Shown piece after piece: positions 32,488-62,535 of a DNA stretch of 64,000 nt (its first letter is position 1; the number at the start of each line of letters is the position of its first letter). The position numbers were made by a program, and so were the translations under genes. The notes beneath the pieces are model-generated. The model saw nothing but the letters and a program-made list of their open reading frames with translations. It searched no databases and was not told where the DNA came from. The stretch is from Candidatus Eiseniibacteriota bacterium. GTDB lineage: Bacteria > Eisenbacteria > RBG-16-71-46. The stretch is from NCBI GenBank assembly GCA_963717505.1, contig OY970342.1, forward strand, positions 512,001 through 576,000, given 5' to 3'.

Positions 32488-32669
32488 AGACCGCCGCCGC
32501 CGCGCCAGGACCAAGCGCGCGGACTTGCCGCGTTGAGAATTCCTGGTCCGGCACGGCGCCGGGAGGCCCCTTCAGGCGGCCTCCGCGCGGACATTCGGGG
32601 ACGCTGGCGGCGGGCGAGCCGTCGCGCTACGCTGCGTTCCTACCCCCCCATCCTGAACAGGAGTGTTCG

Positions 32670-35240
32670 ATGACCCCGAAGAAACTGTTCCTCCTTGGCA
32701 CACTGGTCGGCCTGTGCGCGGCACCGCTGGGCGCCGCGGTCGCCGCCGGTGCCGACGCCGATTCCACCGCTCAGGCCGAGTCCGCTCCCGCCCCACCGGA
32801 CACCACGGCGCCGGTGATCGCGCCCAACACGAGCCCGGCGCAGGCCGCGGCGCCGTCGGCCGCGGCGGGGACTCAGGTGGCCACACCGGACCCCGCGGAT
32901 CGCGATGGCGGTTGGCCCCGGATCACCGAGACCGTGACCGGCGCAACGCTCATCATGTACCAGCCGCAGGCCGTGTCGTGGGAACGCCAGCGCGAGCTGG
33001 TGGCCATGGCGGCGCTCTCCTACCTGGCCAAGAGCGCCACCACGCCCGACCTCGGAACGGTCACTCTCTCCGCCCAGACCTCGGTTTCCACGGAAGAGCG
33101 GATGGTGAAACTGGAACAGGTCAAGATCACCGATATGAAATTCTCCACGCTCGACAAGGCGGAGGCGCGCGAGGCCCTGGCCGAGATCCAGGAGGCGGTC
33201 CCGGTGACCGCGGTGTTCATGGGCCTCGACCGGCTGCTCGCGATGGTGGACAAGAGCCTGATTCGCGGCAGCAGCGTGCAGGTGCAGACCGACCCACCTC
33301 CGATCTTCTACAGCGAGAAGCCGGCGGTGCTGCTCCAATTCGACGGGCCGCCGATCATGGCCACGATCGAGAAGGGCACGCTCAAGTACGGACTCAACAC
33401 CAACTGGGACGTCCTGCAGGATCCCGAATCCAAGACCTATTACCTGCGCAACGGGACCGGCTGGTTCCAGGCCCCCGAACTCAAGGGTCCGTGGAAGGTC
33501 ACGGGGAAGCTCCCGAAGTCCTTCGAGCAGATCCCGGCCAACGACAACTGGAAAGAAACCAAGGACAACATCCCCGGGAAGAAGGCGAAAGACACGGAGG
33601 TGATCTACTCGGAGCGACCGGCGGAGCTGCTGATGCTCGAGGGCAAGCCCAAGTACGAGAAGCTCGAGGGCACCCGGACGAACGACAAGAAGGGCAGCGA
33701 GATCCTGTGGGTCAAGAACACGGAGAGCGACCTGTTCCGCGTGAAGGATGCCGAGTTCTACTACCTGGTTTCGGGTCGCTGGTTCAGTGCCGCCGAGCTC
33801 AAAGGTCCGTGGAAGTTCGCCACCCAGAACCTGCCGCCCGCGTTCCTCCAATTCCCCGTCGACCACGAGCGAGCGCGGGTGCGCAGCTCGATCCCGGGGA
33901 CCGATGAGGCCGCCGAAGCCGTGCTGCTGGCGCAGGTGCCGCAGACCGCGCGGGTGGATGCCAAGAACCTGAAGCCCGTCTCCGTGGCCTACGACGGCGA
34001 GCCCAAGTTCGAACCGATCGAGGGCGCTGCCGGCGTCACCTATGCGGTCAACACCGAGAGCGACGTGTTCGTGGTTTCTGGCACCTACTACCTGTGCCAG
34101 GCCGGCGTGTGGTTCAGCTCGAACAGTCCCAACGGACCGTGGAGCGTAGCGACCAACATCCCGGAGGCCATCTACCAGATCCCGCCCAGCTCATCCGCCC
34201 ATCACGTGACCTACGTGGTCGTGGTCGACGACGACGACGACTACCCGACGTACGGATACACGCCGGGCTACATGGGGGTCACTATTGCCTTCGGCTGCGC
34301 GATGTACGGGACCGGCTACTACTACCCGCCCTACTACGGTTACCCGGGCGGGTATCCCATCTACTATCCGCGCCCGGTGTGCTACGGCGGCGGCGCGATG
34401 TACAACCCACGTACCGGCGCCTACGGGCACTACCAGACGGCCTATGGGCCGTATGGCGGCGTGGCGCGCGGCGCGAGCTACAACCCGACCACCGGAACCT
34501 ACAAGCGCGGCGCGATGGCCTACGGACCCACCGGGGCCCAGGGCTACGCCCAGGCGTACAACCCGCGCACCGGCACCTACGCCTCGACGCGTCAGGGCAG
34601 CAACGCGTACGGAAGCTGGGGATCCACCAGTGTCCAGCGCGGCGACGACTGGGTGAACACGCAGCGCGTCACCGACTCCAATGGCAACAGCAAGTGGCAG
34701 GCGCAGGGTAGCGGCGGCGGCTCGGCCCAGGGAGTGCAAGGCAGTGGCGGCGGCAACGTGGTCAAGACCGGGAGTGGCGACGTCTACGCCGGCAAGGACG
34801 GCAACGTTTACCGCAAGACCGACAATGGCTGGCAGTCGTATGACAACGGGAACTGGAACAACGTCCAGGGCGGGGACGGCGCGCGGCCGGGCAACCAGCC
34901 CGCGGGCGGCGCGGGCAGTACGAAGCCGGGCGCTTCGCAGCTTCCCGCGGGTGGGGGAGCTGGTGCAGGTACGGGCGCGTCGCAGCTTCCGAGCGGAGGA
35001 GGCGCAGGAGCGTCGCAGCGTCCGTCCACCCAGCCTGGCGTCTCGCAGCAGCCGAGTACGCGGCAGAGCCCCAATTCCAGCACCATGGGGCAGCTCGATC
35101 GTGACTCCCAGGGGCGCAATCAGGGTGCACAGCGGACCCAAAGCAACTATGGCGGGGGCTCGGGGTCGCGCGGCGGTTCTAGCGGTGGCTCTCGCGGCGG
35201 CGGCGGCGGCAGGCGTGGAGGCGGTGGCGGCCGGCGGTGA
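32670..35240 (+). CDS. Large secreted hypothetical protein with Tyr/Gly-rich YNPxTG repeats and Gly/Arg-rich tail
   Basis: AGGAG RBS, ATG 32670, signal peptide, Ala/Pro linker, repeated 'W..A..L.GPW' units, three YNP(R/T)TG repeats, C-terminal G/R-rich tail. Confidence 0.8.
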   Translation: MTPKKLFLLGTLVGLCAAPLGAAVAAGADADSTAQAESAPAPPDTTAPVIAPNTSPAQAAAPSAAAGTQVATPDPADRDGGWPRITETVTGATLIMYQPQAVSWERQRELVAMAALSYLAKSATTPDLGTVTLSAQTSVSTEERMVKLEQVKITDMKFSTLDKAEAREALAEIQEAVPVTAVFMGLDRLLAMVDKSLIRGSSVQVQTDPPPIFYSEKPAVLLQFDGPPIMATIEKGTLKYGLNTNWDVLQDPESKTYYLRNGTGWFQAPELKGPWKVTGKLPKSFEQIPANDNWKETKDNIPGKKAKDTEVIYSERPAELLMLEGKPKYEKLEGTRTNDKKGSEILWVKNTESDLFRVKDAEFYYLVSGRWFSAAELKGPWKFATQNLPPAFLQFPVDHERARVRSSIPGTDEAAEAVLLAQVPQTARVDAKNLKPVSVAYDGEPKFEPIEGAAGVTYAVNTESDVFVVSGTYYLCQAGVWFSSNSPNGPWSVATNIPEAIYQIPPSSSAHHVTYVVVVDDDDDYPTYGYTPGYMGVTIAFGCAMYGTGYYYPPYYGYPGGYPIYYPRPVCYGGGAMYNPRTGAYGHYQTAYGPYGGVARGASYNPTTGTYKRGAMAYGPTGAQGYAQAYNPRTGTYASTRQGSNAYGSWGSTSVQRGDDWVNTQRVTDSNGNSKWQAQGSGGGSAQGVQGSGGGNVVKTGSGDVYAGKDGNVYRKTDNGWQSYDNGNWNNVQGGDGARPGNQPAGGAGSTKPGASQLPAGGGAGAGTGASQLPSGGGAGASQRPSTQPGVSQQPSTRQSPNSSTMGQLDRDSQGRNQGAQRTQSNYGGGSGSRGGSSGGSRGGGGGRRGGGGGRR

Positions 35241-48966: not shown

Positions 48967-49476
48967 GTGAAACTTGGGCATCGGGGCCGCTTCGGAGCGG
49001 CCATCGTGGGCGTCCTGTTCGTCGCACTGACGGCGACCGCTCACGCCACGGTTCAGGTCCGGCTGACTGCACACCGGATCCTGAAGGACGCGAAGGGTGC
49101 GGAATCGTTCCAGATCGCCGAGCAGATCAAGCCCGGCGAGTCCGTCGAGTACCGCGCGGTCTATCAGAACGACGGCGACGCCGGCGTCGACAAGCTGGTC
49201 GCGACGCTGCCGATTCCCGCCGGAACCGAGTTCATCGCAGGCACGGCGTCGCCGGCCGGCGCGCAGGCCAGCCTCGACGGCAAGACCTTCGCCCCCATGC
49301 CGCTCAAGCGCAAGGTTCGACTCAGCGACGGCCGTGAGGTCGAGCGCGAAGTGCCGACCGCCGAGTACCGCTTTCTGCGCTGGTCGCTGGGCAGTCTCGG
49401 TTCGCGCAAGGAGCAGATCGTCCGCACACGGGTTCGCGTGACCGCGCTTTCCGCCGGCACCGCGAGCGAACGGTGA
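48967..49476 (+). CDS. Exported single incomplete DUF11-like domain protein (gene A of DUF11 operon)
   Basis: GGAGG RBS at 48956-48960; signal peptide ending ATAHA; 'KPGESVEY...YQN.G...IPAGTEF...LRWSLGSL'. Confidence 0.8.
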   Translation: MKLGHRGRFGAAIVGVLFVALTATAHATVQVRLTAHRILKDAKGAESFQIAEQIKPGESVEYRAVYQNDGDAGVDKLVATLPIPAGTEFIAGTASPAGAQASLDGKTFAPMPLKRKVRLSDGREVEREVPTAEYRFLRWSLGSLGSRKEQIVRTRVRVTALSAGTASER

Positions 49477-52082
49477 CCGCCATGACCCACCTTCGACTCG
49501 ATACCCGACTTGGTTTCGCCCTGCGGGGAGCGTTGCTCCTCGCACTCGGAATCCTCGCGTTCGCGATTCCCGCGTCCGCTGCACCGCCCGCCGGCACCTC
49601 GATCGGCAACCAGGCGTCGGCCCAGTATCTCGACGCGACTTCGACGCTGCGCACCGCGACTTCGAACGTCGTCACCACCATCGTTCAGCAGGTCGCGAGC
49701 TTCACGTTGACCGCGAACGGCAGCGTCACGTCCTCGCCGGGCGGCCAGGTGATCTTCCCGCACACCCTGACCAACACCGGCAACGGCACCGACGACTTCC
49801 CGCTCACGCTGTCGAACGTGGTCGCGGATGACTTCGACCTGACCGGTCTCGCGATCTATCTGGACGCGAACGGCGACGGGGTGCCGGACAACTTCACCAA
49901 CCTGACGACCACGGGATCGGTCGCCGCCGGCGCCGCGTTCCGCTTCGTGGTGGTTGGAAGCGTGCCCGGAACCCAGGTCGGCGGGCAGATCGGCCGCATG
50001 CGGATCGATGCGTCCAGCACGTTCGACCCCGGCCAGGCCACGAACAATCTCGATCAGGTCACCGTCACCGGCAACGCAGTGGTCAGCGTGACCAAGGCGA
50101 TCAACCAGAACAACGGGGCTTCGCCGAGCGGTCCGCACACCTACACCCTGAGCTACAACAACTCGGGCAACAGCACCGCGACCGGCCTGCTGCTCACCGA
50201 CCTGGTTCCGGCTGGAATGACCTACGTGCCGGGCAGCGGTCGCTGGAGCGTCACCGGAGCCACGGTGCTGACCGACGGAAGCGCCGCCGACGCCCAGGGC
50301 GTCGTGCCGAACACCGTGATCTACGACTTCGGCGCGACCACCGGTGGCACGGTCACCGCCCGGATCGCGCAGGTGCCTCCGGGCGCCAGCGGGACCCTGA
50401 CGTTCGACGTCACCGTCAACGCGGGCCTCGGACCGCAGACCATCAGCAACAACGCGACCTACGCGTACAACGACGGTGCGGTCAACGTCGGTCCGTTCGC
50501 CACCAACTTCGCGCCGTTCACGGTCAACCAGGCGGTGTCGCTGACCTTCGCCGGTCAGACGATCCCGATCGCGGTCCAGGGCGCGACCATCTCGTACACC
50601 AACACGCTGACCAACACCGGCAACGGCACCGATCGCTTCGACATCGTGATCGGCGCTTCGACCTTCCCGGCCGGCACCAGCTACGCGCTATACCAGAGCG
50701 ACGGCGTGACGCCGCTGTCGGACACCAACGCCAACGGCACGCCGGACACCGGTCCGCTGGCCGCGGGCGCGGCCTACGATGTCGTTCTGCGACTGACGCT
50801 GCCGACGTCGGCTACCGGCGGTCCGTTCCAGGTCGACAAGACGGCGACCTCGATCTCGAACGTCGCGGTCAACGCCACGGCGACCGACGTCCTGACCACG
50901 ATCACGCCGAATGCCGTCGACCTGACCAACAACTCCCCCGGCGGCGCTGCGCCGGGCGCGGGCGCTGGTCCCGAACTTACGGCGGTGGTGACCAACGCCA
51001 CCAACCCGGCGACCACCACGCGCTTCACGCTGTACGTCAACAACTACAGCACGATCGCGGACAACTTCGATCTGGCGGCGAGCACGGACGGTTCGTTCGG
51101 CTCGATCACGCTGCCGGCGGGTTGGTCCGTGACCTTCTTCGACGCGTCGAACGCGATCATCACCAACACCGGCAGTATCGCCGGCAGCGGCAACGTGCTG
51201 GTCTACGCCGACGTCACGATTCCCGCGGGCTTTGCGGCGAGCACGAACAGCATCTACTTCCGCGCTCGCTCACCGGTTTCGCTGGCCGTCGATTACATCC
51301 ATGACGCGGTGACCGTCAACCCGGTTCGCACCCTGACGCTGGTGCCCAACAACTCCGGACAGCTGACGCCGGGCGGCGCGACCACCTACGCCCACATCCT
51401 GTCCAACACCGGCAACGTGCTGGAAGGTGACGGCGTGGCGAGCGTGGTTTCGCTGACCATGACCAACAACGCCGCCTCGTGGAGCTCGGCGCTGTACGTG
51501 GACAGCAACAACAACGGCTCGCTCGACGTCGGCGACGCCGCGATCGCCGATCTCGGCACCATCGGTGGGCTGGCCTCCGGCGCGAGCGTGCGTCTGTTCG
51601 TGCGTGTCTTCTCGCCGGCCGGTGCTCCACTCGGCGCCACCAACCTGACCACGCTGACCGCGACCACGACCAACGGCACCTACGTCTCGGCGCCGCCGGC
51701 GCTGGTGAACGCAACGGACCTGACCACGGTCCTCAACGGCCAGCTGCAGCTGGTCAAGCGACAGGCGCTCGATGCCGACTGTGACGGCCTTCCCGACGGA
51801 CCTTACTCGTTGGTGAACATCACGGCCGGTGCGATCCCTGACGCGTGCATCTGCTACGAGCTGGTGGTGACGAACGTCGGTACGGCGTCGGTGACCGCGG
51901 TGGTCGTCGACGACGCCACGCCCGCGAACACGACCTATTGGGATGCGGCGCCGGCGTCGAGCACCCAGGGCTTCGTCACCGCACCGCCGGGCAACACCGC
52001 CGGAACGATTTCCGCCGCGGTCGGCATCCTGGCGCCGGGTGCGTCGGCAACGATTCTGTTCGGAGTTCACATCGACCCCTAA
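49473..52082 (+). CDS. Exported DUF11/Ig-repeat protein (gene B)
   Basis: GTGA overlap with gene A; signal peptide; N-terminal 'AGTSIGNQASAQY...TSNVVTTIV'; 'TLTNTGNGTD.F' repeats; one complete internal DUF11 and one C-terminal partial DUF11. Confidence 0.85.
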   Translation: MTAMTHLRLDTRLGFALRGALLLALGILAFAIPASAAPPAGTSIGNQASAQYLDATSTLRTATSNVVTTIVQQVASFTLTANGSVTSSPGGQVIFPHTLTNTGNGTDDFPLTLSNVVADDFDLTGLAIYLDANGDGVPDNFTNLTTTGSVAAGAAFRFVVVGSVPGTQVGGQIGRMRIDASSTFDPGQATNNLDQVTVTGNAVVSVTKAINQNNGASPSGPHTYTLSYNNSGNSTATGLLLTDLVPAGMTYVPGSGRWSVTGATVLTDGSAADAQGVVPNTVIYDFGATTGGTVTARIAQVPPGASGTLTFDVTVNAGLGPQTISNNATYAYNDGAVNVGPFATNFAPFTVNQAVSLTFAGQTIPIAVQGATISYTNTLTNTGNGTDRFDIVIGASTFPAGTSYALYQSDGVTPLSDTNANGTPDTGPLAAGAAYDVVLRLTLPTSATGGPFQVDKTATSISNVAVNATATDVLTTITPNAVDLTNNSPGGAAPGAGAGPELTAVVTNATNPATTTRFTLYVNNYSTIADNFDLAASTDGSFGSITLPAGWSVTFFDASNAIITNTGSIAGSGNVLVYADVTIPAGFAASTNSIYFRARSPVSLAVDYIHDAVTVNPVRTLTLVPNNSGQLTPGGATTYAHILSNTGNVLEGDGVASVVSLTMTNNAASWSSALYVDSNNNGSLDVGDAAIADLGTIGGLASGASVRLFVRVFSPAGAPLGATNLTTLTATTTNGTYVSAPPALVNATDLTTVLNGQLQLVKRQALDADCDGLPDGPYSLVNITAGAIPDACICYELVVTNVGTASVTAVVVDDATPANTTYWDAAPASSTQGFVTAPPGNTAGTISAAVGILAPGASATILFGVHIDP

Positions 52083-52093
52083 CCCGGTATCCC

Positions 52094-55000
52094 ATGCAGA
52101 GTATCCGGGTTCATCCAGCACGACACGGGCGCCCCGCGGAGTTCCACTCCGCGACGGGCGCCGTCGTGCTGGTATGCGTATTGGCCGGCACTGCGTTTTT
52201 TTTCACGCGCGCGCACGCGATTCCATATACGCGCGGCACCGCATCCCCGCTGGCGACGGTTTCCGGGCCGCCGCCCGGCGCTCTCGTCGACAACACGGCG
52301 TTCGCGGCTGGACTCGACTCGGCAACCGCGACCCCGCTCAACGTCGCCTCGAACCCGGTGAGAACGATCGTCGGCACGTTCGAGCGGCTGGCATGGGACG
52401 GCCCGTTCGGAGCACAGGTTCCGCAGGGCACGAGAGCGACGTTTCGCCACCGACTGGCCAACACGGGCAACGTTTCCTCGGAAGTGCGCCTCGACGTCGC
52501 GAATTCGTTCGGCGACGGCTTCGATCTCGCGAACTTCTCGCTCGCCCGTGACGACGACGCCGACGGCGTCCCGAGCCCGGGCGACAGCTCGATCGCGCTC
52601 GGAGACGCGATTCTCGTGCCTGCCGACGCGGTCGTGGACCTGCTGGTCGGCTTCGACGTTCCGGCCGGCACTCCGGCGGCGGTCGCAGCCGAGTTCATGC
52701 TGTCGGCGACGACGCTCGACCAGGCGGTGGTCGCGGCCGTCGTCGACACCGTGCGCACTCCCGCCGGTCCGACGCTGGCGTTCTACCGCGACGGCACTTA
52801 TGCCGCAACCACGCAGATCGCCGCCGGCGGCGCGAACCTGTTCGTCGAGGCCGGCGCGGTCGGCTGCAACCTGCGGCCGTTTGCCGCCGATACGCTCGCG
52901 ATCACGCTCCGCTCGCTGCGCCTCGGCGACCTCGAGACGTTCACCGCCATCGAGACGGGACCGGCCACCGGGCGCTTCCGCATCGGCCCGTTCGTCGGCA
53001 CCGTGCTCACGCCGCCGGGCGTCACCCCCTACACCCTGGGTGTGCTCGAGACCGAAGCCAACGACGAGTTGGTCGCGAGCTTCGTCGGCTGTGGTGCGGT
53101 GCTCACCGAAGCGCGGCTGTGGATCGAGCCGGCCGGCGTCGCGTTCGATGCGCTCAGCAACTTCCCGGTGGCCGGCGTCCAGATCTCGCTGATCGACGTC
53201 ACCGGCCAGGGCAACGGCGGCTTCGCGGGCGGGCCGGCGCGCGTCTTCCAATCGGATGGCGTCACCCCGGCGCCCGACGCCGTCGTGACTGCATTCGATG
53301 GCCGCTATCTCTTCCCCTACGTGCTGGCCAGCACCTACCAGCTGAACGTGACGGCACCGGTCGACTACGCGTTTCCTTCGCAGGTCGCTCCCAGTGGGCT
53401 GCCCGTTGGCCACGTGATCGACGCTCAGGGCTCGTATGGCGCGCCGTTCGTGATCGCGACCGATGGCCCGCCGATCCGGCACGACGTTCCCCTCGATCCT
53501 CTCGGTGCGGCGGGTCTGCGCGTCGAGCTGACGGCGGCTCGGAACACGGCTGAGATCGGCGACGCCATCGATTTCACCGCGCGCGTGAGCAACGCTTCGG
53601 GCCGTCCGGTCGGGATGACTCAGCTGGCGATCGCATTGCCGCCGGGCTTTGCCTATCTGCCCGGCACGACCCGCCGCGACACGCTCTCTGCGCCCGATCC
53701 GGCCGGTGGGGCCGGCCCTTCGCTCGCGTTCGACGCCGGGGCCCTCGGCATCGGCGGTACCGCGACCGTTCGCTACCGGGTGCGCATCGGCGCCGGCGCC
53801 GAGCCCGGCGAGGCGCTGAGTCGCGCGAGTGCCACCGCGATCAACGCGACCTCGAACGTGGCCACGGCATCGGTGCTGATCGTGGACGGAGTGTTCGCCG
53901 ATGAAGCCGGCGTGCTCGGCACGGTGTTCGTGGACCTGAACGGCGATGGCCGCCGCAGTGCCGGCGACCCCGGACTTCCCGGCGTGCGCCTGGTGCTCGA
54001 CGACGGGACGTTTGCGGTCACCGACGGCGCCGGGCAGTACAGCCTCTACGGCCTGACGCCGCGCACGCACGGCCTGCGCGTCGATCCGTCGTCGCTCCCG
54101 GATGGCGCGGAAATGCTGGCCCTCGACCACCGCGATGCCGGAACGCCGGGGCTGCGCTTCGTCGATCTGCAGCGCGGCGACTTCCAGCGCGCGGACTTCG
54201 GCGTCGCGCCCGATTCGGCGACGCGCGTGGCGCCCGAGGAACGGCGCAAGGTGATCGCGTATTCCGGCGGCGAACTGGCCCCGACCGTTCGCCGTCCCCT
54301 GCCGGTCCAGGAGTTCGAGACCACGCCCGGCGATCCCCGGGCGCGGCCGACCTCAGGGGTCCTGGGCGAGTCGGGCCCGGCCCCGCTCGAACCACCGAAA
54401 CGCGGGGAATCCGCCGATCCGGCGACACCGACGATCTCGGCGCACGAAGGCGGAACGCGCGGGCGGCTTCCTCAGCCCGAGATGCCGGCTTTGCTGGCGT
54501 CGAACACCAGCGACCTCATCGATCCGGCGGACGGACTGTCCGGCACTCAGCCTTTCGGCTTCGTGGGCCGGCGGAACGGCGACACACTGAGCACCGACCA
54601 AATCACCGTGCGGGTTGCCGGACGCGCCGCCTTCGCGCTCGAGCTGCGCGTGAACGGCGACCTGGTGCCGCTGACCCGCGTCGGCACGCGACGCATCGAC
54701 GCCGACGCCGGGCTCCAGACCTGGGACTACATCGGCGTCCGCCTGCACCCGGGGCTCAACCAGCTCGAGCTGACCGAGCGCGCGACTGACGGCACCGCCG
54801 GCGCGCACGCCACGCTCGCGCTGGTGGCTCCGGACCGCCTGGGAACGCTCGAAATCACAGCACCCGAACGGGCCCCCGCCGACGGTCGCCGGCTCGCGTT
54901 CGTGCAAGTGCGAGCCGTCGATGAGCGCGGGGTGCCGATTGCCGGCCGCCTGGCGGTGACGCTGGTCGCCACGTTCGGCGAGTGGCAGATCGACGACGCT

Positions 55001-57586
55001 GATGGCTTCGCGCCGGGGGTTCAGACGGTGATCGAAGGCGGGGTCGCGGAGTTCGGACTCAGGACCCCGCGCGATCCGTGCCTGGCGACGATCACAGTCG
55101 CCGCCAGCGACCGACGCGCCGAGACTCAGATCGAATTCGTGCCCGACTTGCGGCCGCTGGTCGCGGTCGGCACCGCGGAATGGCAGGTGGGCTGGAACCA
55201 TCGCCTGAGCGGCTTCGCGACCTCGTATCGCGCGCGCACCGGATTCGAGCAGGCGTACTCGAGCATGGTCACCGAAGGCGTCGACGGCCGGCTGAGCGGC
55301 GGGGCGCGCGCGTCGCTGTTCGCCAAGGGTCGCGTCGGTCGCGATCTGCTGTTGACGCTGGGCTACGATTCCGATCGGCCGTCCGACCTCCGCCGCTTCC
55401 GCGACATCCAGCCCGACGCGTTCTACCCGCTCTATGGCGACGGTTCGGTGCGCGGCTACGACGCGCAGTCGTCGGGCAGCCTGTTCGCACGGCTCGACCG
55501 TCGCGGCGCGTCCCTGCTCTACGGCGACTTCATCACCGCCTCGTCGGGCAGTGCGCGCAGCCTGTCGACCTACAGCCGCAGCCTGACCGGAGTGCAGCAG
55601 CACTTCGAGAACCGGCGGACACGGGTGGACGCGTTCGCCAGCCGCGGCCGAGCGCGGCAGACGGTCGACGAGCTGCGCGGTCTCGGCGTCTCCGGCCCCT
55701 ACACTCTGTCGCGCACGCCGATCGTCGAGAACAGCGAACAGGTCGAGATCCTGGTGCGCGATCGCAACCAGCCGGGCGTCGTGCTGTCGGCGTCGGCGCG
55801 AACGCGATTCACCGACTACGAGGTCGACCCGTACACCGGCCGCCTGCTGTTCAAGCAACCGATTCCCAGCCACGACGGCGACCTGAATCCGGTGTCGATC
55901 CGCGTGGCCTACGAGACCCGTGACGGCGGCAATCCCTACTGGGTGGGCGGCGTCGAGACCCGCTTCAAGATCGATCCGCGGCTCGAAGTCGGCGGCAGCG
56001 TGGTCGCCGACGACGACGTCACGAACCCCTATCGACTCGGCAGCCTCTATGCCGGCGCGCGCATCGACGACGCGACCGAAGTCGAGGGCGAGTTCGCGCG
56101 CACCACCGCCGGCGGCAGTCCGGCGCTCGGCTGGCGGATGGAGGCGCGTCACGATCGCGTCGGGACCCAGGGCCGCTTCTGGGCGGCGAGCACTGACACC
56201 GGTTTCGCGAACCCGCACGCCGGCTACGCGCCCGGGCGCACGGAGCTGGGACTGCGCTGGTCGCATCGCCTCGACGAGCGCGCTCGTTTCCTGTCGGAGG
56301 GCATGTACACGGCCGAACCGGGGGGCGATCGCCGCGGCGGATTCCTGGTCGGCGTCGATCGCGGGCTCAGCTCGACGACGCGCGGCGAGTTCGGCATGCG
56401 TATCGCCGCCGAGCAGCGGGCGGTGGGCGAATCCGATCCGGCCAGCGTGGCACTGCGCGCGAAGCTCACGGCACAGGCCCCGGGCCACCCCGAACTCAGC
56501 GGCTTCGCCGAGCTCGAGCAGGACATGATCGAGTTCGACCGCCGACTGGCGGCGGTCGGCGGTGAATACCGCTTCAGCGCACGCGGCCGCCTGTACGCGC
56601 GCCACGAGCTGGCCTCGACCCTCACCGGCCCGTTCGCGCTGACTGCCGGGCAGCGCCGCCTGGCCACGGTGGTCGGAGTCGACGCCGACGTGACGCGCGG
56701 CGCCCATCTGTTCAGCGAATACCGCCTGGCCGACGCGTTCGCTGCCCGCGAGGCCGAGGCGGTGCTCGGCCTGCGGAATGCCTGGCAGGTCGGCGACTAC
56801 CGGATCAACACGTCGTTCGAGCGCGTGAGCCCGCTCGATGCGACCTCGACCGGGCCGACCACCGCGCTCGCCGGTGGCCTCGAAGCCATGGCCGACCCCG
56901 CGATCAAGATGGCTCTGCGCATGGAAGGTCGGACATCGCGGGCGAACGACGGCTACCTGACGACGATGGCCGCGGCGTTCCGGGTCGATCGCGCGTGGAG
57001 CGTGGTCGCGCGCACGCTCGCCGACCTCAACACCGGCCGTGACCGCGGCAACACGTTGCGGCTGCGGAACCAGATCGGCTTCTCGTTCCGTCATCCGGAC
57101 CTCGAGGTGCTCGATGCGCTCGGGCGCTACGAAATGCGCCTCGACCGCGAGCCGACCGACGCCACGCGCCGCACGCGCCACCTGGCGCACGTCCTTTCGT
57201 TCCACACCACCGGTCGCCTGTACGAGTCGTTCGAGACGTCGTTCGCCTGGGCGGCAAAGCTGGCCGACGAGAGCGCGGACGGCCTGGTCACGCACTCGAC
57301 CGCACAGTGGCTACACGGCCGCGTCGCGCGCGGATTCGCCAAGCACTGGGACGCGGGAGTTCACGGGAGCACGCTGATGGGCTCGGGATCGGAGCGCACC
57401 GGGCTCGGCGCCGAGATCGGCCGGCAGATGCAGCCGGGCGTCTGGATGTCGGCCGGCTGGAATCGCTTCGGCTACTTCGATCCCGATCTGCCCGACGAGG
57501 CCTACACGCGCGCCGGCTTCTACCTGCGGGTGCGCGCCCGCTTCGACGAATCGATCGTCGGCCGCATCGCCGGAGGTGGCCGATGA
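52094..57586 (+). CDS. Large outer-membrane protein: N-terminal Ig/DUF11/SdrD-B domains + C-terminal beta-barrel (gene C)
   Basis: Signal peptide; 'GTVFVDLNGDG...PGLPGVRL.L.DG....TD..GQYS'; 'FYPLYGDGS....DAQS...LFARL'; many amphipathic strands from about 55140; ends 'GFYLRVRARFDE'. Confidence 0.8.
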   Translation: MQSIRVHPARHGRPAEFHSATGAVVLVCVLAGTAFFFTRAHAIPYTRGTASPLATVSGPPPGALVDNTAFAAGLDSATATPLNVASNPVRTIVGTFERLAWDGPFGAQVPQGTRATFRHRLANTGNVSSEVRLDVANSFGDGFDLANFSLARDDDADGVPSPGDSSIALGDAILVPADAVVDLLVGFDVPAGTPAAVAAEFMLSATTLDQAVVAAVVDTVRTPAGPTLAFYRDGTYAATTQIAAGGANLFVEAGAVGCNLRPFAADTLAITLRSLRLGDLETFTAIETGPATGRFRIGPFVGTVLTPPGVTPYTLGVLETEANDELVASFVGCGAVLTEARLWIEPAGVAFDALSNFPVAGVQISLIDVTGQGNGGFAGGPARVFQSDGVTPAPDAVVTAFDGRYLFPYVLASTYQLNVTAPVDYAFPSQVAPSGLPVGHVIDAQGSYGAPFVIATDGPPIRHDVPLDPLGAAGLRVELTAARNTAEIGDAIDFTARVSNASGRPVGMTQLAIALPPGFAYLPGTTRRDTLSAPDPAGGAGPSLAFDAGALGIGGTATVRYRVRIGAGAEPGEALSRASATAINATSNVATASVLIVDGVFADEAGVLGTVFVDLNGDGRRSAGDPGLPGVRLVLDDGTFAVTDGAGQYSLYGLTPRTHGLRVDPSSLPDGAEMLALDHRDAGTPGLRFVDLQRGDFQRADFGVAPDSATRVAPEERRKVIAYSGGELAPTVRRPLPVQEFETTPGDPRARPTSGVLGESGPAPLEPPKRGESADPATPTISAHEGGTRGRLPQPEMPALLASNTSDLIDPADGLSGTQPFGFVGRRNGDTLSTDQITVRVAGRAAFALELRVNGDLVPLTRVGTRRIDADAGLQTWDYIGVRLHPGLNQLELTERATDGTAGAHATLALVAPDRLGTLEITAPERAPADGRRLAFVQVRAVDERGVPIAGRLAVTLVATFGEWQIDDADGFAPGVQTVIEGGVAEFGLRTPRDPCLATITVAASDRRAETQIEFVPDLRPLVAVGTAEWQVGWNHRLSGFATSYRARTGFEQAYSSMVTEGVDGRLSGGARASLFAKGRVGRDLLLTLGYDSDRPSDLRRFRDIQPDAFYPLYGDGSVRGYDAQSSGSLFARLDRRGASLLYGDFITASSGSARSLSTYSRSLTGVQQHFENRRTRVDAFASRGRARQTVDELRGLGVSGPYTLSRTPIVENSEQVEILVRDRNQPGVVLSASARTRFTDYEVDPYTGRLLFKQPIPSHDGDLNPVSIRVAYETRDGGNPYWVGGVETRFKIDPRLEVGGSVVADDDVTNPYRLGSLYAGARIDDATEVEGEFARTTAGGSPALGWRMEARHDRVGTQGRFWAASTDTGFANPHAGYAPGRTELGLRWSHRLDERARFLSEGMYTAEPGGDRRGGFLVGVDRGLSSTTRGEFGMRIAAEQRAVGESDPASVALRAKLTAQAPGHPELSGFAELEQDMIEFDRRLAAVGGEYRFSARGRLYARHELASTLTGPFALTAGQRRLATVVGVDADVTRGAHLFSEYRLADAFAAREAEAVLGLRNAWQVGDYRINTSFERVSPLDATSTGPTTALAGGLEAMADPAIKMALRMEGRTSRANDGYLTTMAAAFRVDRAWSVVARTLADLNTGRDRGNTLRLRNQIGFSFRHPDLEVLDALGRYEMRLDREPTDATRRTRHLAHVLSFHTTGRLYESFETSFAWAAKLADESADGLVTHSTAQWLHGRVARGFAKHWDAGVHGSTLMGSGSERTGLGAEIGRQMQPGVWMSAGWNRFGYFDPDLPDEAYTRAGFYLRVRARFDESIVGRIAGGGR

Positions 57587-60500
57587 GCCGCGACCTCCTC
57601 CGCCGCATGGCGAGCGCGTGGGTCCGGATTCTCGGCGGGCTCGCGGTGGCCGGTTGCCTGTCGGCATCGCCCGCAGCGGCCCAGGTGTTCCGCAACTTCA
57701 CGCCGCGATTCACCACCAACACCACCGGCGACATCACCCTGGTCGGCAACACGATCATGAGCTGCAGCGCCGGCGGCGGCTGCACCACCGCACGCAACGG
57801 CGGCGGCGGCAACCAGAACAACAACGATTGGAACATGCAGTACGTGGACGTCGACGGCGACGGCACCACGTTCAGCTCGAGCCGCGCCACGCTCACGCTC
57901 CCGGTCGGCGCCACGGTGGTGTGGGCCGGACTCTACTGGGGCGGCAACTCCAACAACGCCAACCGCAACACGTGTCGGTTCGCGTCCCCGGCTGCGGCCT
58001 ACGCGACGCTGACCGCCGATCAGCTCGACAACACCGGGTCGGCATACTCGGCGTTCGAGGACGTCACGGCGCGCGTCCAGACCGGCGGCAGCGGCCAGTA
58101 CACAGTGGGCAACGTCTACTCGACCACTGGCACCAACAACTACGGCGGCTGGTCGCTGGTGGTCGTTTATCAGCTCGCGAGCGCGCCGGCTCGCAACCTG
58201 GTGGTGTTCGACGGCTACGCCGAAGTCGCCCCCGGAGCCTCGGTCAACATCGCGGTCAGCGGCTTCCTGACCCCGCCGGCCGGCGCGGTGAACACCACGC
58301 TGGGTGCGGTGACCTACGAAGGCGACCGCGGCTTCACCGGCGATGACTTCGACCTGAACGGCATCGTGCTCTCCGACGGCGACAATCCGGCCAACAACTT
58401 CTTCAACAGCTCGATCGCCCTCCTCGACGTCCAGTTCACCAACAAGAACCCGAACTACGTGAACCAGCTCGGCTTCGACGCCGACCTGGTGAACGCGAGC
58501 GGCATCCTGGCCAACGGCGCGACCAGCGCCACGATCCAGCTCAGCTCGACCGACGATCGCTTCTACCCGGCCGCGGTCACGTTCGCCACCGACCTCTACG
58601 TGCCGGTGTTGAGCGGCAACGGCTTCACCAAGCTGGTCGCCGATTTGAACGGGGCGCCGGCCCGTCCGGGCGACGTCCTCGAGTACACAGTGTTCCTGCG
58701 CAACACCGGCAACGACGCGTCGCTCAACACCGTCGCGCGCGACACGATCCCGGCGAACACCGCCTACGTGGCCGGTTCGATGACCGTGCTCAACGGTCCC
58801 AACGCCGGCGCCAAGAGCGACGGCGCTGGCGACGACCAGGCCGAGTTCGACGTCGCCGGCAACCGCGTGGTGTTCCGCCTCGGGACCGGAGCCAATGCGG
58901 CGAATGGCGGCCAGCTGAGCCCGGGGGTTCAGACCTCGTTCCGGTTCCGCGCGGTCGTCACCTCGCCGTCGCCGACCGGCACCGTGGTCTCGAATCAGGC
59001 GGTCGCCAACTTCAACGCCGCCCAGCTCGGCACGGCACTCGTTTCGATCAGCGATGCCGACACGATCACCGCCGGCACGCAACGCACCAACGTCACGGTG
59101 ACCGCGCCGACCCTGTCGGGCGTGGTCTTCGAAGATCCGAACTACGGCGGTGGGGCCGGCCGGAATCGCGTGACATCGTCGGGAGTCGTGCGGCCGGGCG
59201 CGCGCGTCGAGCTGTACAACGCGGCCGGCGCGTTCCAGTCGTTCAGCACCACCAATGCCTCGGGGGTCTACAGCTTCAACGGCTGGGGCCCGGGCGGCTA
59301 CACGGTACGCGTGGTCAACAGCACGGTGAGCTCGTCGCGCGCCGGCGCGGTGGCCGGGCTGCTCCCGGTGCAGACCTTCCGCACCAACGCCGCGACCGGG
59401 GTTGCGGTGGACGACGCGCAGCGCGTCGGCGGCGAGAGCCCCGGACTGCAGGACGCCGGATCCAACCTGACCAACGCGACTTTGGCGTCGCTGACCACCG
59501 CGTCCGCAACCCCGCAATCGATCGCACCGGTGACTCTGGGCACCGCCGATCTGTCGGGGGTCGAGTTCGGTTTCAACTTCAGCACCATCGTCAACGCCAA
59601 CGACAGCGGTTTCGGGAGCCTGCGCCAGTTCCTGATCAACGCCAACGCACTGGCGAACACCGGCCTGGCCCAGGCCGGACTTCCGGCCGGGATCGAGCAC
59701 GCGATCTTCATGGTCACCGACGGTGCGGCGCACCCGGGCCTGCGCGCCGGCCTGCCGAACCTGCTGACCGGCGGCGTGGTCGCGATCAACGTGCTCAGCA
59801 CGCTGCCGTCGATCACCGGTGCATCGACCACCATCGACGGCGGGCTCCAGACCGCGAACGTCGGCGACACCAACCCCGGCACGCTCGGGACCGGGGGCTC
59901 GGCCGGCGTCGACCTGCTGTCGCTGCCGGCGGTCGCCCGGCCCGAGGTCGAGATTCGCGACGGCGCCGCCCTGGCGCTCGGGCTCGACCTCATGGCGAGC
60001 GACATCACGCTCGCCCGTCTCGCGGCCTACGGCTTCGGCAACGCCCCGGGAAACAACAACAGCGCCGTGGTACGCGTCTGGACCAATGGCCTGCGCGCGA
60101 TCCTCGACGGCTGCGTCCTGGGCACCAGCGCCTCGAGCTTCACCGATCCCGGCGCCGGCGTGCGTTCGGGCGGCGACGTCGTGCGCTCGGCGGGGGGCGA
60201 CGACGGCATTGTGCGCAACAGCCTGATCGGATTCGGCGCCGGGTCGGGCATCGCACTCGCCGGCACCTCCAATGGCTGGCAGATCCTGACGAACGAGATT
60301 CGTGGCAACGCGATCGGCAACTCGACGCGCGACGGCATCAGCATCGAAGCCGGCGCCACCGAGTTGGTTCGCGGCAACCTGATCGCGAGCCACGAGGGCT
60401 GCGGCATCGACGCCGGAGCCAGTACCGGCGGCAACACCTTCGTGAACAACACGGTGACGCGCAGCGGCCTCGGTGCGGGTGCCGCCGAGACTCCCGGCGT

Positions 60501-62535
60501 GCGGGTCGGCGGCAGCACCAGCCTGGTGGATCGCTGCATTCTGTTCGACAACTACGGCGCGGGCGTGATGGTGGCCTCGGGCGGCACCGCGGTCACGATC
60601 ACCCGCAACTCGATCTACGGCAATGGAACGATCAATGGCGGCCTCGGTGGCCCGAGCGGCCAGGTCGGCATCGATCTGCTGACGGCGGCCGATACCCCGG
60701 CCCACGGCACGGCCCCATACTTCACGATCAACGACAACGGCGATGGCGACGGCGGCGGCAACGGTCTACTCAACTTCCCGGTGCTCGAGTCCGCGAGCAT
60801 CGCCGGCAGCAACGTCACGCTCACCGGCTGGGCGCGTCCGGGGTCAGCGATCGAGGTCTTCCTCGCGAATCCGGACCCCTCCAGCTTCGGCGAGGGTCAG
60901 ACTTATCTTCTGACCGTCACCGAAGGCTCGGGCGCGGACCTCGACGCGACGACCGGTCCCTATTCCGGACCGATCAACGGCGTGAATCAGGGCACAGACA
61001 ACACCAATCGCTTCCGCTTCACCGTACCGGCGCCGGGGGGCCTGACCTCGGGCGTGCGTCTGACCGCGACCGCGACGGTGGCGCTCGCGACTTCCGAGTT
61101 CTCCGGACTGGTGGTGGTCGGCGGAGGCTTCGCCGTCAGCGGGTTCGGTTACCAGGACCTCGACCACGACCTGCAACGCGACGCGGTCGAGAGCGGCATC
61201 GGCAGCGCGCTGTTCGTCAAGCTCGTGCCGGTGTCATCGCCGGGTTCGGCGCAGTCGGTGGCCAGTGTCGACCCCGGAACCGGTGTGTGGAGCATCGGCT
61301 TCGTTTCCTCGGGCAACTACACGCTGGTGCTCGATGACAACAGTCTTGTCTCCGACGTCACGCCCAATTACCCCGCCGGCTGGATCGGAACCGAAGCCCC
61401 GGCGGGAACGCGCCCCCTGACCGTGACCGCAGTCAACGTCTCCGACCAGGACTTCGGCCTCTGGCACGGCGGTCGAGTCGAGGGCGTGGTGTTCGACGAC
61501 GATGGCGCGGGCGGCGGCGCGGCGAACGACGGCGTGCGGCAGGGTGGCGAGGCCGCGATCGCCGGGGTTCGCATGCGGCTCGCGGCCGTTCCGTGCGCCG
61601 GAGGATTGTGCGACAGCACGCTGACCGACGGCGCCGGGTTCTATGCCCTGTGGATCCCGCATGCGGCTTCGGGCGCCACCACTGAAGTGCGCGAAGCCAA
61701 TCCGTCGGTGTGGATCTCGACCGGGGGCGGCGCCGGGACGACCGGGGGCAGCTACGTGCGCGCGGCCGACGCGGTCTCTTTCGTTCCCCTGAGCGGCAAC
61801 CTCTACACCGGCGCCGTCTTCGGCGACGTGGCGCCGAACCAGTTGGTGCCTCCCGGAATGCAGACCGGGACCGAAGGCTCCGTCGTGTTCCATCCCCACA
61901 CGTTCGTCGCCGGGAGCGCCGGCAGCGTGACCTTCGGGCTCGGGCAGGCCCCGGCGCCGGTGATCCCGGGCTGGGGGGCTCAGCTCTATCGCGACCTGGA
62001 CTGCGACGGCGCCATCGACGCCGGCGAGCCGGCGATCGTCGCGCCCCAGGCGGTCACCGGCGGCCAGACGATGTGCCTCGTACTACGGCACTCGATTCCG
62101 GCCGGAGCACCTCTTGGCGCGCTCGAGCAGGTCACGGTTTCGGCAAGCATGAGCTACACCGGGGCCGCACCGCCGCTCGTCACCGTCGTTCTGCTCGACG
62201 ATCGCACCACCGTGATGGACGCCGGCACGTTGCGGATCGTCAAGAGCGTCAGCTCGGGCACCGCGCTGCCGGGCGATCTGATCACCTACACGATCACCTA
62301 CACCAACCTGGGCCCGGCTCCGGTCTCGGCGATCGAGATCCAGGACATGGTGCCGGGCTACACGATGTTCCAGTCCGCGGGCTGCGGCGGGCTGGGCAGC
62401 GGACTCTCGGCGTGCGGGGTGACCACGCAGCCGCCGCTGAACGGAACCGGACCGTTGCGTTGGACCCTGACCGGCGCGCTCGATCCGGGCGCAACCGGCA
62501 GCGTCACGTTCCAGGTACAGGTCGAGACGCCCTAG
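57583..62535 (+). CDS. Large exported adhesin-like protein: N-terminal beta-sandwich, DUF11, SdrD-B, right-handed beta-helix, C-terminal partial DUF11 (gene D)
   Basis: GGAGG RBS and ATGA overlap with gene C; signal peptide; 'WAGLYWGG', 'GGWSLVVVY'; 'SGVVFEDPNYGGG'; 'GSLRQFLINAN'; N/G-rich beta-helix 'TITRNSIYGNG...GIDL'; 'LNFPVL'. Confidence 0.85.
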   Translation: MSRDLLRRMASAWVRILGGLAVAGCLSASPAAAQVFRNFTPRFTTNTTGDITLVGNTIMSCSAGGGCTTARNGGGGNQNNNDWNMQYVDVDGDGTTFSSSRATLTLPVGATVVWAGLYWGGNSNNANRNTCRFASPAAAYATLTADQLDNTGSAYSAFEDVTARVQTGGSGQYTVGNVYSTTGTNNYGGWSLVVVYQLASAPARNLVVFDGYAEVAPGASVNIAVSGFLTPPAGAVNTTLGAVTYEGDRGFTGDDFDLNGIVLSDGDNPANNFFNSSIALLDVQFTNKNPNYVNQLGFDADLVNASGILANGATSATIQLSSTDDRFYPAAVTFATDLYVPVLSGNGFTKLVADLNGAPARPGDVLEYTVFLRNTGNDASLNTVARDTIPANTAYVAGSMTVLNGPNAGAKSDGAGDDQAEFDVAGNRVVFRLGTGANAANGGQLSPGVQTSFRFRAVVTSPSPTGTVVSNQAVANFNAAQLGTALVSISDADTITAGTQRTNVTVTAPTLSGVVFEDPNYGGGAGRNRVTSSGVVRPGARVELYNAAGAFQSFSTTNASGVYSFNGWGPGGYTVRVVNSTVSSSRAGAVAGLLPVQTFRTNAATGVAVDDAQRVGGESPGLQDAGSNLTNATLASLTTASATPQSIAPVTLGTADLSGVEFGFNFSTIVNANDSGFGSLRQFLINANALANTGLAQAGLPAGIEHAIFMVTDGAAHPGLRAGLPNLLTGGVVAINVLSTLPSITGASTTIDGGLQTANVGDTNPGTLGTGGSAGVDLLSLPAVARPEVEIRDGAALALGLDLMASDITLARLAAYGFGNAPGNNNSAVVRVWTNGLRAILDGCVLGTSASSFTDPGAGVRSGGDVVRSAGGDDGIVRNSLIGFGAGSGIALAGTSNGWQILTNEIRGNAIGNSTRDGISIEAGATELVRGNLIASHEGCGIDAGASTGGNTFVNNTVTRSGLGAGAAETPGVRVGGSTSLVDRCILFDNYGAGVMVASGGTAVTITRNSIYGNGTINGGLGGPSGQVGIDLLTAADTPAHGTAPYFTINDNGDGDGGGNGLLNFPVLESASIAGSNVTLTGWARPGSAIEVFLANPDPSSFGEGQTYLLTVTEGSGADLDATTGPYSGPINGVNQGTDNTNRFRFTVPAPGGLTSGVRLTATATVALATSEFSGLVVVGGGFAVSGFGYQDLDHDLQRDAVESGIGSALFVKLVPVSSPGSAQSVASVDPGTGVWSIGFVSSGNYTLVLDDNSLVSDVTPNYPAGWIGTEAPAGTRPLTVTAVNVSDQDFGLWHGGRVEGVVFDDDGAGGGAANDGVRQGGEAAIAGVRMRLAAVPCAGGLCDSTLTDGAGFYALWIPHAASGATTEVREANPSVWISTGGGAGTTGGSYVRAADAVSFVPLSGNLYTGAVFGDVAPNQLVPPGMQTGTEGSVVFHPHTFVAGSAGSVTFGLGQAPAPVIPGWGAQLYRDLDCDGAIDAGEPAIVAPQAVTGGQTMCLVLRHSIPAGAPLGALEQVTVSASMSYTGAAPPLVTVVLLDDRTTVMDAGTLRIVKSVSSGTALPGDLITYTITYTNLGPAPVSAIEIQDMVPGYTMFQSAGCGGLGSGLSACGVTTQPPLNGTGPLRWTLTGALDPGATGSVTFQVQVETP

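Follow-up and report, generated by a model that had tools for sequence, protein, structure and literature searches.

Can a secreted protein whose last domain breaks off before its end be completed by the first residues of another subunit, and so be joined into a fibre? The question is raised by gene B of a 64,000-nucleotide (nt) stretch of the Candidatus Eiseniibacteriota bacterium contig OY970342.1 (positions 512,001 to 576,000 of the forward strand; the whole stretch is termed the window). Gene B encodes a chain of immunoglobulin (Ig)-like domains with an unfinished domain of the DUF11 family at its C terminus and, at its N terminus, a short segment resembling the missing part. DUF11 has been renamed CLIPPER, and the crystal structure 9IFR is reported to contain an intramolecular Lys–Asn isopeptide bond, catalysed by Asp and formed by the triad Lys715, Asp748 and Asn806 (PMC12617251). 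The evidence makes it probable that B serves as the shaft, or extension, subunit in a surface fibre encoded by four genes and built from split CLIPPER domains, the joints of which are covalently locked.

The open reading frame (ORF) 49473–52082 of the forward strand, proposed in an earlier reading of the letters (termed here the sequence-only reading), is real, and all peptide strings quoted there are present in its translation. Residue numbers for B are counted from the GTG at 49473, the start assumed in that reading; the identical database protein (P0004) has 866 amino acids (aa) and begins at the ATG at 49482, which is the likely true start (gene B, 49482..52082, forward strand). Residues 1–36 look like a Sec signal peptide (49482..49580 from the ATG), with cleavage predicted from the translation between ASA and A37 (an AxA site, ASA followed by APPAG); A34, A36 and A37 are kept in 102–108 of the 121 homologues examined, which are 62–100% identical to B. 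Cleavage at this site places the donor segment at the mature N terminus. The donor (49581..49688) comprises the first 36 mature residues, corresponding to the four short strands that end a DUF11 domain, and includes Asn46 (AAC, 49608–49610). The AlphaFold2 (AF2) model of B, calculated from a 43-sequence alignment (predicted local distance difference test (pLDDT) 83, predicted template modelling score (pTM) 0.39), is all-β and contains five complete domains and the terminal one, in keeping with the Ig-like multi-domain architecture already proposed, with linkers of 4–7 residues between the domains. The single intact DUF11/CLIPPER domain of that proposal (50073..50531, aa 201–353) was also recovered (Pfam aa 205–332, E = 2.5e-11; 36.7–44.3 bits). 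Its own Lys208, Asp243 and Asn326 are invariant among homologues, and it provides an internal template for the split domain.

The last domain of B (51738..52079, aa 756–869) is an unfinished DUF11/CLIPPER domain, about 28 Pfam profile positions short, which stops after the strand preceding the Asn strand and contains Lys762 (51756–51758), Asp814 (51912–51914) and the cysteines Cys770 and Cys792. The codons of Asn46, Lys762 and Asp814 lie where the sequence-only reading had put them. Scanned alone, the last 118 residues are recognized as DUF11 with 29.0 bits against a gathering cut-off of 24.6, and the match stops at profile position ~80 of 114, whereas an internal DUF11 domain of the neighbouring gene C, used as a control, extends to position 114 of 114. 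A complete domain in one chain, characteristic of CLIPPER/DUF11 (PF01345), is found neither at the end of B (~80 of 114) nor at the end of gene D (86 of 114). In profile alignments with hhalign, the acceptor (residues 752–869) covers columns 1–118 of the 154-column intact domain of B (probability 97.4%, E = 3.7e-11), and the donor (residues 38–76) falls weakly onto columns 119–154 (P 0.006, in forced global mode). Once iterated over related loci, the profile of the donor also matches intact DUF11 domains at their ends, with E ≤ 1e-3. The AF2 model places four short strands in the donor (pLDDT 82–88), and the identical pattern occurs at the end of the intact domain of B.

The result is a triad at canonical CLIPPER positions that is split across the two ends of the chain: the acceptor holds Lys762 and Asp814, and the donor Asn46. 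These residues align with Lys208, Asp243 and Asn326 of the intact domain, as judged from hhalign and from the motifs in the translation, and their positions match the Lys/Asp/Asn triad reported for 9IFR (PMC12617251). The proposal that the two halves form a natural Tag/Catcher-like pair is strongly supported by the tiling of the profiles, the invariance of the residues and comparative genomics. Of the earlier interpretation as a whole, the part that makes the N terminus the missing, Asn-bearing piece of a truncated Lys/Asp domain therefore stands; the shaft role that accompanied it is rated separately, as somewhat favoured.

Gene B is part of a four-gene cassette, A-B-C-D, which carries two donors (B and C) and two reactive acceptors (B and D). 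The window lies on a single 4.16-Mb contig, and homologues of B carry source names that assign the organism to Candidatus Eisenbacteria. Among the 20,864 six-frame ORFs of the whole genome, the donor profile matches only B (1.9e-25) and the N terminus of C (i-E 0.025), and the acceptor profile at E < 0.01 matches only the extreme C termini of B and D. Gene C (52094..57586, forward strand, 1830 aa) consists of a signal peptide, an N-terminal donor (C residues 59–93, 52268..52372), a stalk of Ig, SdrD_B and DUF11 domains and a giant C-terminal outer-membrane barrel, and has no terminal acceptor; its donor has the core positions of that of B. Gene D (57583..62535, forward strand, 1650 aa) has a signal peptide but no donor, and continues with an N-terminal domain of unknown type, SdrD_B, a right-handed β-helix and a terminal acceptor (62230..62532). 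This acceptor is a terminal DUF11 domain (Pfam 44.8 bits, positions 2–86 of 114) in which Lys and Asp are both present, and its match to the acceptor hidden Markov model (HMM; 2.3e-07) ends 2 aa before the stop. With donors on B and C and acceptors on B and D, a chain can only take the form D ← B(n) ← C, and D is likely to be the distal tip adhesin.

Gene A (48967..49476, forward strand, 169 aa) encodes a secreted protein with a single acceptor-like, truncated DUF11-like domain (Pfam DUF11 positions 11–64 of 114, E = 0.0026) without the Lys and the Asp. The corresponding acceptor columns hold Ala and Leu/Thr, within a conserved ATLPIP motif that replaces the catalytic Asp motif. The A family aligns to positions 29–117 of the 118-position acceptor profile and ends ~10 non-conserved residues later. 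Small A-like ORFs are present in 48 of 80 related loci (three of these loci are counted through B-like gene fragments), and in many phyla the A family stands beside B. A protein-atlas look-up of A returned only unnamed DUF11-like clusters. The product of A is a candidate for a non-reactive pseudo-acceptor, acting as a donor-holding chaperone or cap.

Among the 121 homologues of B, Asn46, Lys762, Asp814, Cys770 and Cys792 are each present in all 121, and the same C-terminal Pro ends 120. Of the cysteines that the sequence-only reading had singled out, C770 and C792 are those invariant ones; C794 is not, being Arg in 114 of 121. Conservation along B is highest in the donor, which has a mean top-residue frequency of 0.886 compared with 0.745–0.793 for the other domains. 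In 80 related loci and the window taken together, 94 of 95 donors have the Asn; of the 84 terminal acceptors, 80 have the Lys and 80 the Asp. Divided by class, the Asn is found in all 46 B-type donors and in 41 of the 42 C-type ones, and none of the 46 B-type or 30 D-type acceptors lacks the Lys or the Asp. B and C donors have all inward-facing core positions in common (I/V, N, A, A ... S, N, V, V), which leaves no obvious barrier to the entry of a B donor into a B acceptor. The two types of donor differ on their outward-facing side, and what sets the B and D acceptors apart is an insertion with a disulfide. Relative to C-type donors, those of the B type have G, Q, A, Y, D, T and Q as additional invariant positions, as expected if they need to suit more partners.

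A pattern-limited scan across species genomes gave 393 related stretches, of which the 80 loci were kept. The taxa in the titles of these loci are Eisenbacteria, Beta- and Gammaproteobacteria, Verrucomicrobia, Nitrospirota/Thermodesulfovibrionales, an Acidobacteriaceae bacterium and Entotheonella. Where there was room upstream (52 loci), a B-like ORF with an N-terminal donor and a terminal acceptor adjoins the barrel gene in 42, and a donor is present on C in 39. Four of the ten misses (L014, L015, L034 and L048) have a B-like ORF further upstream and a C gene broken into two ORFs, and two have an acceptor only. A distant locus (L010:4467-14144) contains two short pilin-like genes (332 and ~370 aa, pilins being ~300–370 aa long), both of which combine a donor with a terminal acceptor, together with A-, C- and D-like genes. 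Of 201 genomes sampled from the phylum, 79 contain the barrel family itself, a tally that includes one unpublished genome (G015). The two-ORF form of C in the metagenome-assembled loci L014, L015, L034 and L048 could reflect frameshifts, assembly errors or real breaks. L073 and L089, and also L088 and L057, have a barrel gene and a D-like terminal-acceptor gene, no B-like gene being detected, and may be two-piece versions; the barrel gene of L089 contains an internal stop.

The possibility that B and C are the two halves of one broken gene was considered and rejected: C possesses a start, a signal peptide and a 16-residue spacer of its own, the stop of B is conserved in 120 of 121 homologues, and genes so arranged recur across phyla. 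When longer proteins with the acceptor region fused into them were sought, 8 were found, all of them generic multi-DUF11 arrays with 31–40% identity; the absence of B–B or B–C fusions among them is weak evidence. The genome also encodes a single-chain paralogue of 2,708 aa (G000:C1:1360764-1368890, reverse strand, equivalent to L009:9764-17890), which has a signal peptide, 13 DUF11 repeats, SdrD_B and a barrel 36–37% identical to that of C, and is without terminal half-domains. Open frames with this barrel in relatives are 2,700–4,800 aa long. Judged from its sequences, the cassette looks like such a single-chain adhesin cut into self-ligating pieces.

In the assembly that these features suggest, Sec export and cleavage of the signal peptide would free residues 37–72 of B as the donor, which would fit into the C-terminal DUF11/CLIPPER domain left unfinished in another subunit and supply its last two hairpins. 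Asn46 would thereby be brought beside Lys762, with Asp814 as the catalytic acid, and an autocatalytic Lys–Asn isopeptide bond, as in intact CLIPPER domains, would lock the joint. D, having an acceptor only, would form the distal tip; B, having both donor and acceptor, would follow in one or many copies; and C, having a donor only, would end the chain and tie the fibre to the outer membrane through its giant C-terminal barrel. The fibre would be exported through the barrel of C and grow at its base, where the N terminus of each new subunit would enter the groove of the previous one, as in chaperone–usher pili, and A would serve as the non-reactive, donor-binding chaperone or cap. Completion of an acceptor by a donor in trans is well supported by the comparison of sequences.

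This assembly has to be weighed against other readings of the same evidence. If the N terminus of B completed the C-terminal domain of its own chain, or packed on domain 1, B would be a monomeric multi-Ig surface protein. The AF2 monomer points that way, since the donor is structured in it and hence packed within the same chain. Such closure is nevertheless hardly credible: C has a donor and no acceptor, and D an acceptor and no donor, here and in most related loci, neither of which can be satisfied in cis, so that purely intramolecular closure does not explain the system. Five Ig-like domains joined by short linkers separate the donor from the acceptor of B, which makes it unlikely that the chain bends back, and an N-terminal domain-end piece standing directly before the next domain has the look of a cut tandem array. 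The joints could instead be held by donor-strand complementation only, the Lys, Asp and Asn being retained for their part in the structure, without formation of an isopeptide bond. Gene A does have the same truncated fold without the Lys or the Asp, and the CLIPPER survey reports some DUF11 domains without the bond (PMC12617251). This reading is nonetheless quite improbable, as the three residues are invariant at the bond-forming positions of the solved CLIPPER domain and their joint loss precisely in A suggests that they are retained elsewhere for their chemistry. From the invariance and correct placement of these residues, and from that joint loss, we infer a covalent isopeptide lock.

A further reading keeps the split-domain joints and dispenses with the polymer. 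Each fibre would then be a three-piece adhesin with one D, one B and one C and two split-domain joints, in which a single B serves as adaptor or extension module, with a donor that fits only the acceptor of D and an acceptor that takes only the donor of C, and splitting would serve the piecewise export of a very long adhesin. The lengths are in accord with this, as the sum of D, B and C lies within the range of the same-barrel single chains described above. The outward-facing differences between the B and C donors and the disulfide-bearing insertion that distinguishes the B and D acceptors could encode the required specificity, there is no sign that B is over-expressed, and L073 and L089 seem to hold only C and D. 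Yet every conserved core position is common to the B and C donors, so that exclusion of B from B would need specificity at the surface; B-type donors are more constrained than C-type donors; and the short pilin-like genes of L010, each with donor and acceptor, are arranged as in pilus operons. On this evidence the three-piece form is unlikely, although it carries some weight. The common core, the additional invariant positions of B-type donors and the L010 pilins slightly favour B-to-B polymerization.

Several points count against the proposed assembly. The match of the donor to the intact domain is weak by itself (probability 2.6% under the same forced global alignment), and the donor of B alone, like that of C, gives no Pfam family match even at E 10. 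By the criterion used, 4 of the 52 loci with upstream room (L057, L073, L088 and L089) are without a B-like ORF. A 1:1:1 D–B–C chain would already have the length natural to single-chain relatives with the same barrel. The gap between B and C is 11 nt, a promoter and terminator scan found nothing above shuffled sequences, and B gives no sign of being in excess over C and D. The iterated HMMs with which donors and acceptors were gathered favour sequences that keep the motifs, which makes the invariance across phyla partly circular, and the loci are rich in related Eisenbacteria and Burkholderiales, so that the counts are not independent. The placement of the donor in trans rather than in cis rests on genetics and not on structure, and the fibre system is proposed here from sequences and predicted models.

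The barrel region of C (55301..57583, the last 761 aa) has no match in Pfam or NCBIfam, and a profile search of the PDB gave 0 matches. Its AF2 model (35 sequences; pLDDT 75, pTM 0.66) consists of ~39 long meander strands and a small insert. In Foldseek it has only weak likeness to the giant outer-membrane barrels SlpA, LptD, SprA and MtrB and to FimD, with template modelling (TM) scores of 0.15–0.28. The classical 12-strand autotransporter barrel (PF03797) was not matched by C in Pfam, and the model has ~39 long strands over 761 aa. For B as a whole, Foldseek gave only generic tandem-Ig matches, and a PDB sequence search with the B profile returned 0 matches.

Among described systems, BsaA, archaeal threads and chaperone–usher pili are the closest analogues of the fibre proposed here, and its chemistry would match that of CLIPPER. 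The likeness to CLIPPER is that of a shared family, to which the acceptor and the intact domain of B both belong, with Lys on the first strand, a catalytic Asp and Asn on a late strand. The difference is that the cross-link described for CLIPPER is intramolecular and belongs to fibrillar adhesins made of a single chain, whereas here the domain is cut at the gene end and the triad lies on two termini. The terms 'truncated', 'strand complementation' and 'beta-barrel' are absent from the main text of that paper (PMC12617251); where it says 'incomplete', twice, the subject is refolding in one case and, in the methods, triad side chains in the other. Single-chain DUF11 fibres such as the 2,708-aa paralogue and GhlA of Litorilinea aerophila, described as a DUF11 stalk protein that forms visible filaments (10.1101/2025.08.19.671072), likewise have beads-on-a-string DUF11 stalks, but all of their domains are in one polypeptide and there are no terminal half-domains. 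GhlA and tafi (PMC11821415) were both considered as matches to the cassette and set aside, having different architectures as they are presented.

In BsaA of Clostridium perfringens, a member of the TasA family, an N-terminal segment is reported to enter the sheet of the next subunit, where an Asn–Lys isopeptide bond forms with an acidic catalyst, and mutants lose the oligomers (10.1101/2024.11.04.621531). Donor-strand insertion secured by an intermolecular isopeptide lock is what is proposed for B, the residues of which are placed and conserved as such a lock requires. BsaA differs, as described, in having the TasA/camelysin fold, for which B has no match in Pfam or NCBIfam, and in donating a single strand rather than a 36-residue, two-hairpin piece; it belongs to a Gram-positive system with the SipW peptidase and without an outer-membrane barrel. 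Head-to-tail donor-strand complementation with proposed intermolecular isopeptide bonds is also reported for the archaeal thread protein Saci_0406 (PMC9715654), which differs in being archaeal and, as presented there, in being without a Pfam domain and a barrel anchor.

The sequence logic of B is analogous to that of chaperone–usher subunits, in which an incomplete Ig fold is filled in by an N-terminal extension from the next subunit. As in type 1 and P pili, there would be a groove-only tip, a shaft subunit with extension and groove and an extension-only terminator, with assembly at an outer-membrane barrel. The cassette differs in that its missing piece is four short strands and not one, in the predicted covalent lock and in the fusion of the terminator to the barrel. 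FimD is only at rank 38 for the barrel model of C, with a TM score of ~0.2, and no Pfam match to the PapD-like chaperone or the PapC/FimD usher family was found in A, C or the neighbouring genes. With regard to sortase pili, B ends in HIDP without an LPXTG-type sorting signal, and no sortase was found among the neighbours scanned. SpyTag/SpyCatcher-type pairs were cut from intact Gram-positive CnaB domains or designed. They resemble the two halves of B in combining a short peptide that bears a reactive residue with a truncated Ig-like domain that bears the partner residue and a catalytic acid; the cut in B differs in being natural, in lying within a CnaA-like domain and in serving assembly.

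Full-text literature searches, the coverage of which leaves subscription journals outside, returned no paper on a split CLIPPER domain or on this cassette, and fibres of this kind have probably not been reported before from double-membraned bacteria. A bolder formulation, which we hold tentatively and somewhat short of even odds, is that the cassette represents a new pilus class for diderm cells without a chaperone–usher pair, a sortase or a type IV machine. Pieces of a cut tandem-CLIPPER protein would self-ligate head to tail with B polymerizing, each joint restoring a single self-crosslinking domain out of two chains, and folding and irreversible bonding would ratchet the fibre through the ~39-strand barrel, the own donor of which would terminate and anchor it. 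A would act as a donor-holding pseudo-acceptor, the fibres would vary in length in units of about six Ig-like domains (830 aa), and there would be a large natural library of orthogonal Tag/Catcher pairs.

Should the proposed assembly be true, diderm bacteria would possess a widespread extra route for building surface fibres, many orphan 'DUF11 repeat protein' operons would be explained, and a gene boundary inside a self-crosslinking domain could act as an assembly device. It would also raise the question of by what means Ig rods that are folded and joined covalently get across the outer membrane without ATP. Natural and probably orthogonal peptide/protein ligation pairs would become available from a CnaA-like fold not yet so used.

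Three of the Ig-like domains of B contain conserved DxNxDGxxD-type loops (approximately 49857–49895, 50721–50750 and 51501–51530), with invariant residues D131/G136/D139, D417/D425/G427 and D677/N679/G682/D685. By their sequence, these loops look like calcium-binding sites. The cassette is flanked by a Suf operon with a MerR regulator on the other strand and by an amidohydrolase gene, and no chaperone, usher, sortase or secretin was found among the neighbours scanned. Elsewhere in the window, a 1,746-aa ORF (27247–32487) has weak matches to multi-barrel models of the Leptospira OmpL47 type (E 1.4e-12, far below cut-off) and is followed by a 954-aa ORF (32376–35240) without an NCBIfam or Pfam family match; the two are possibly another surface system.

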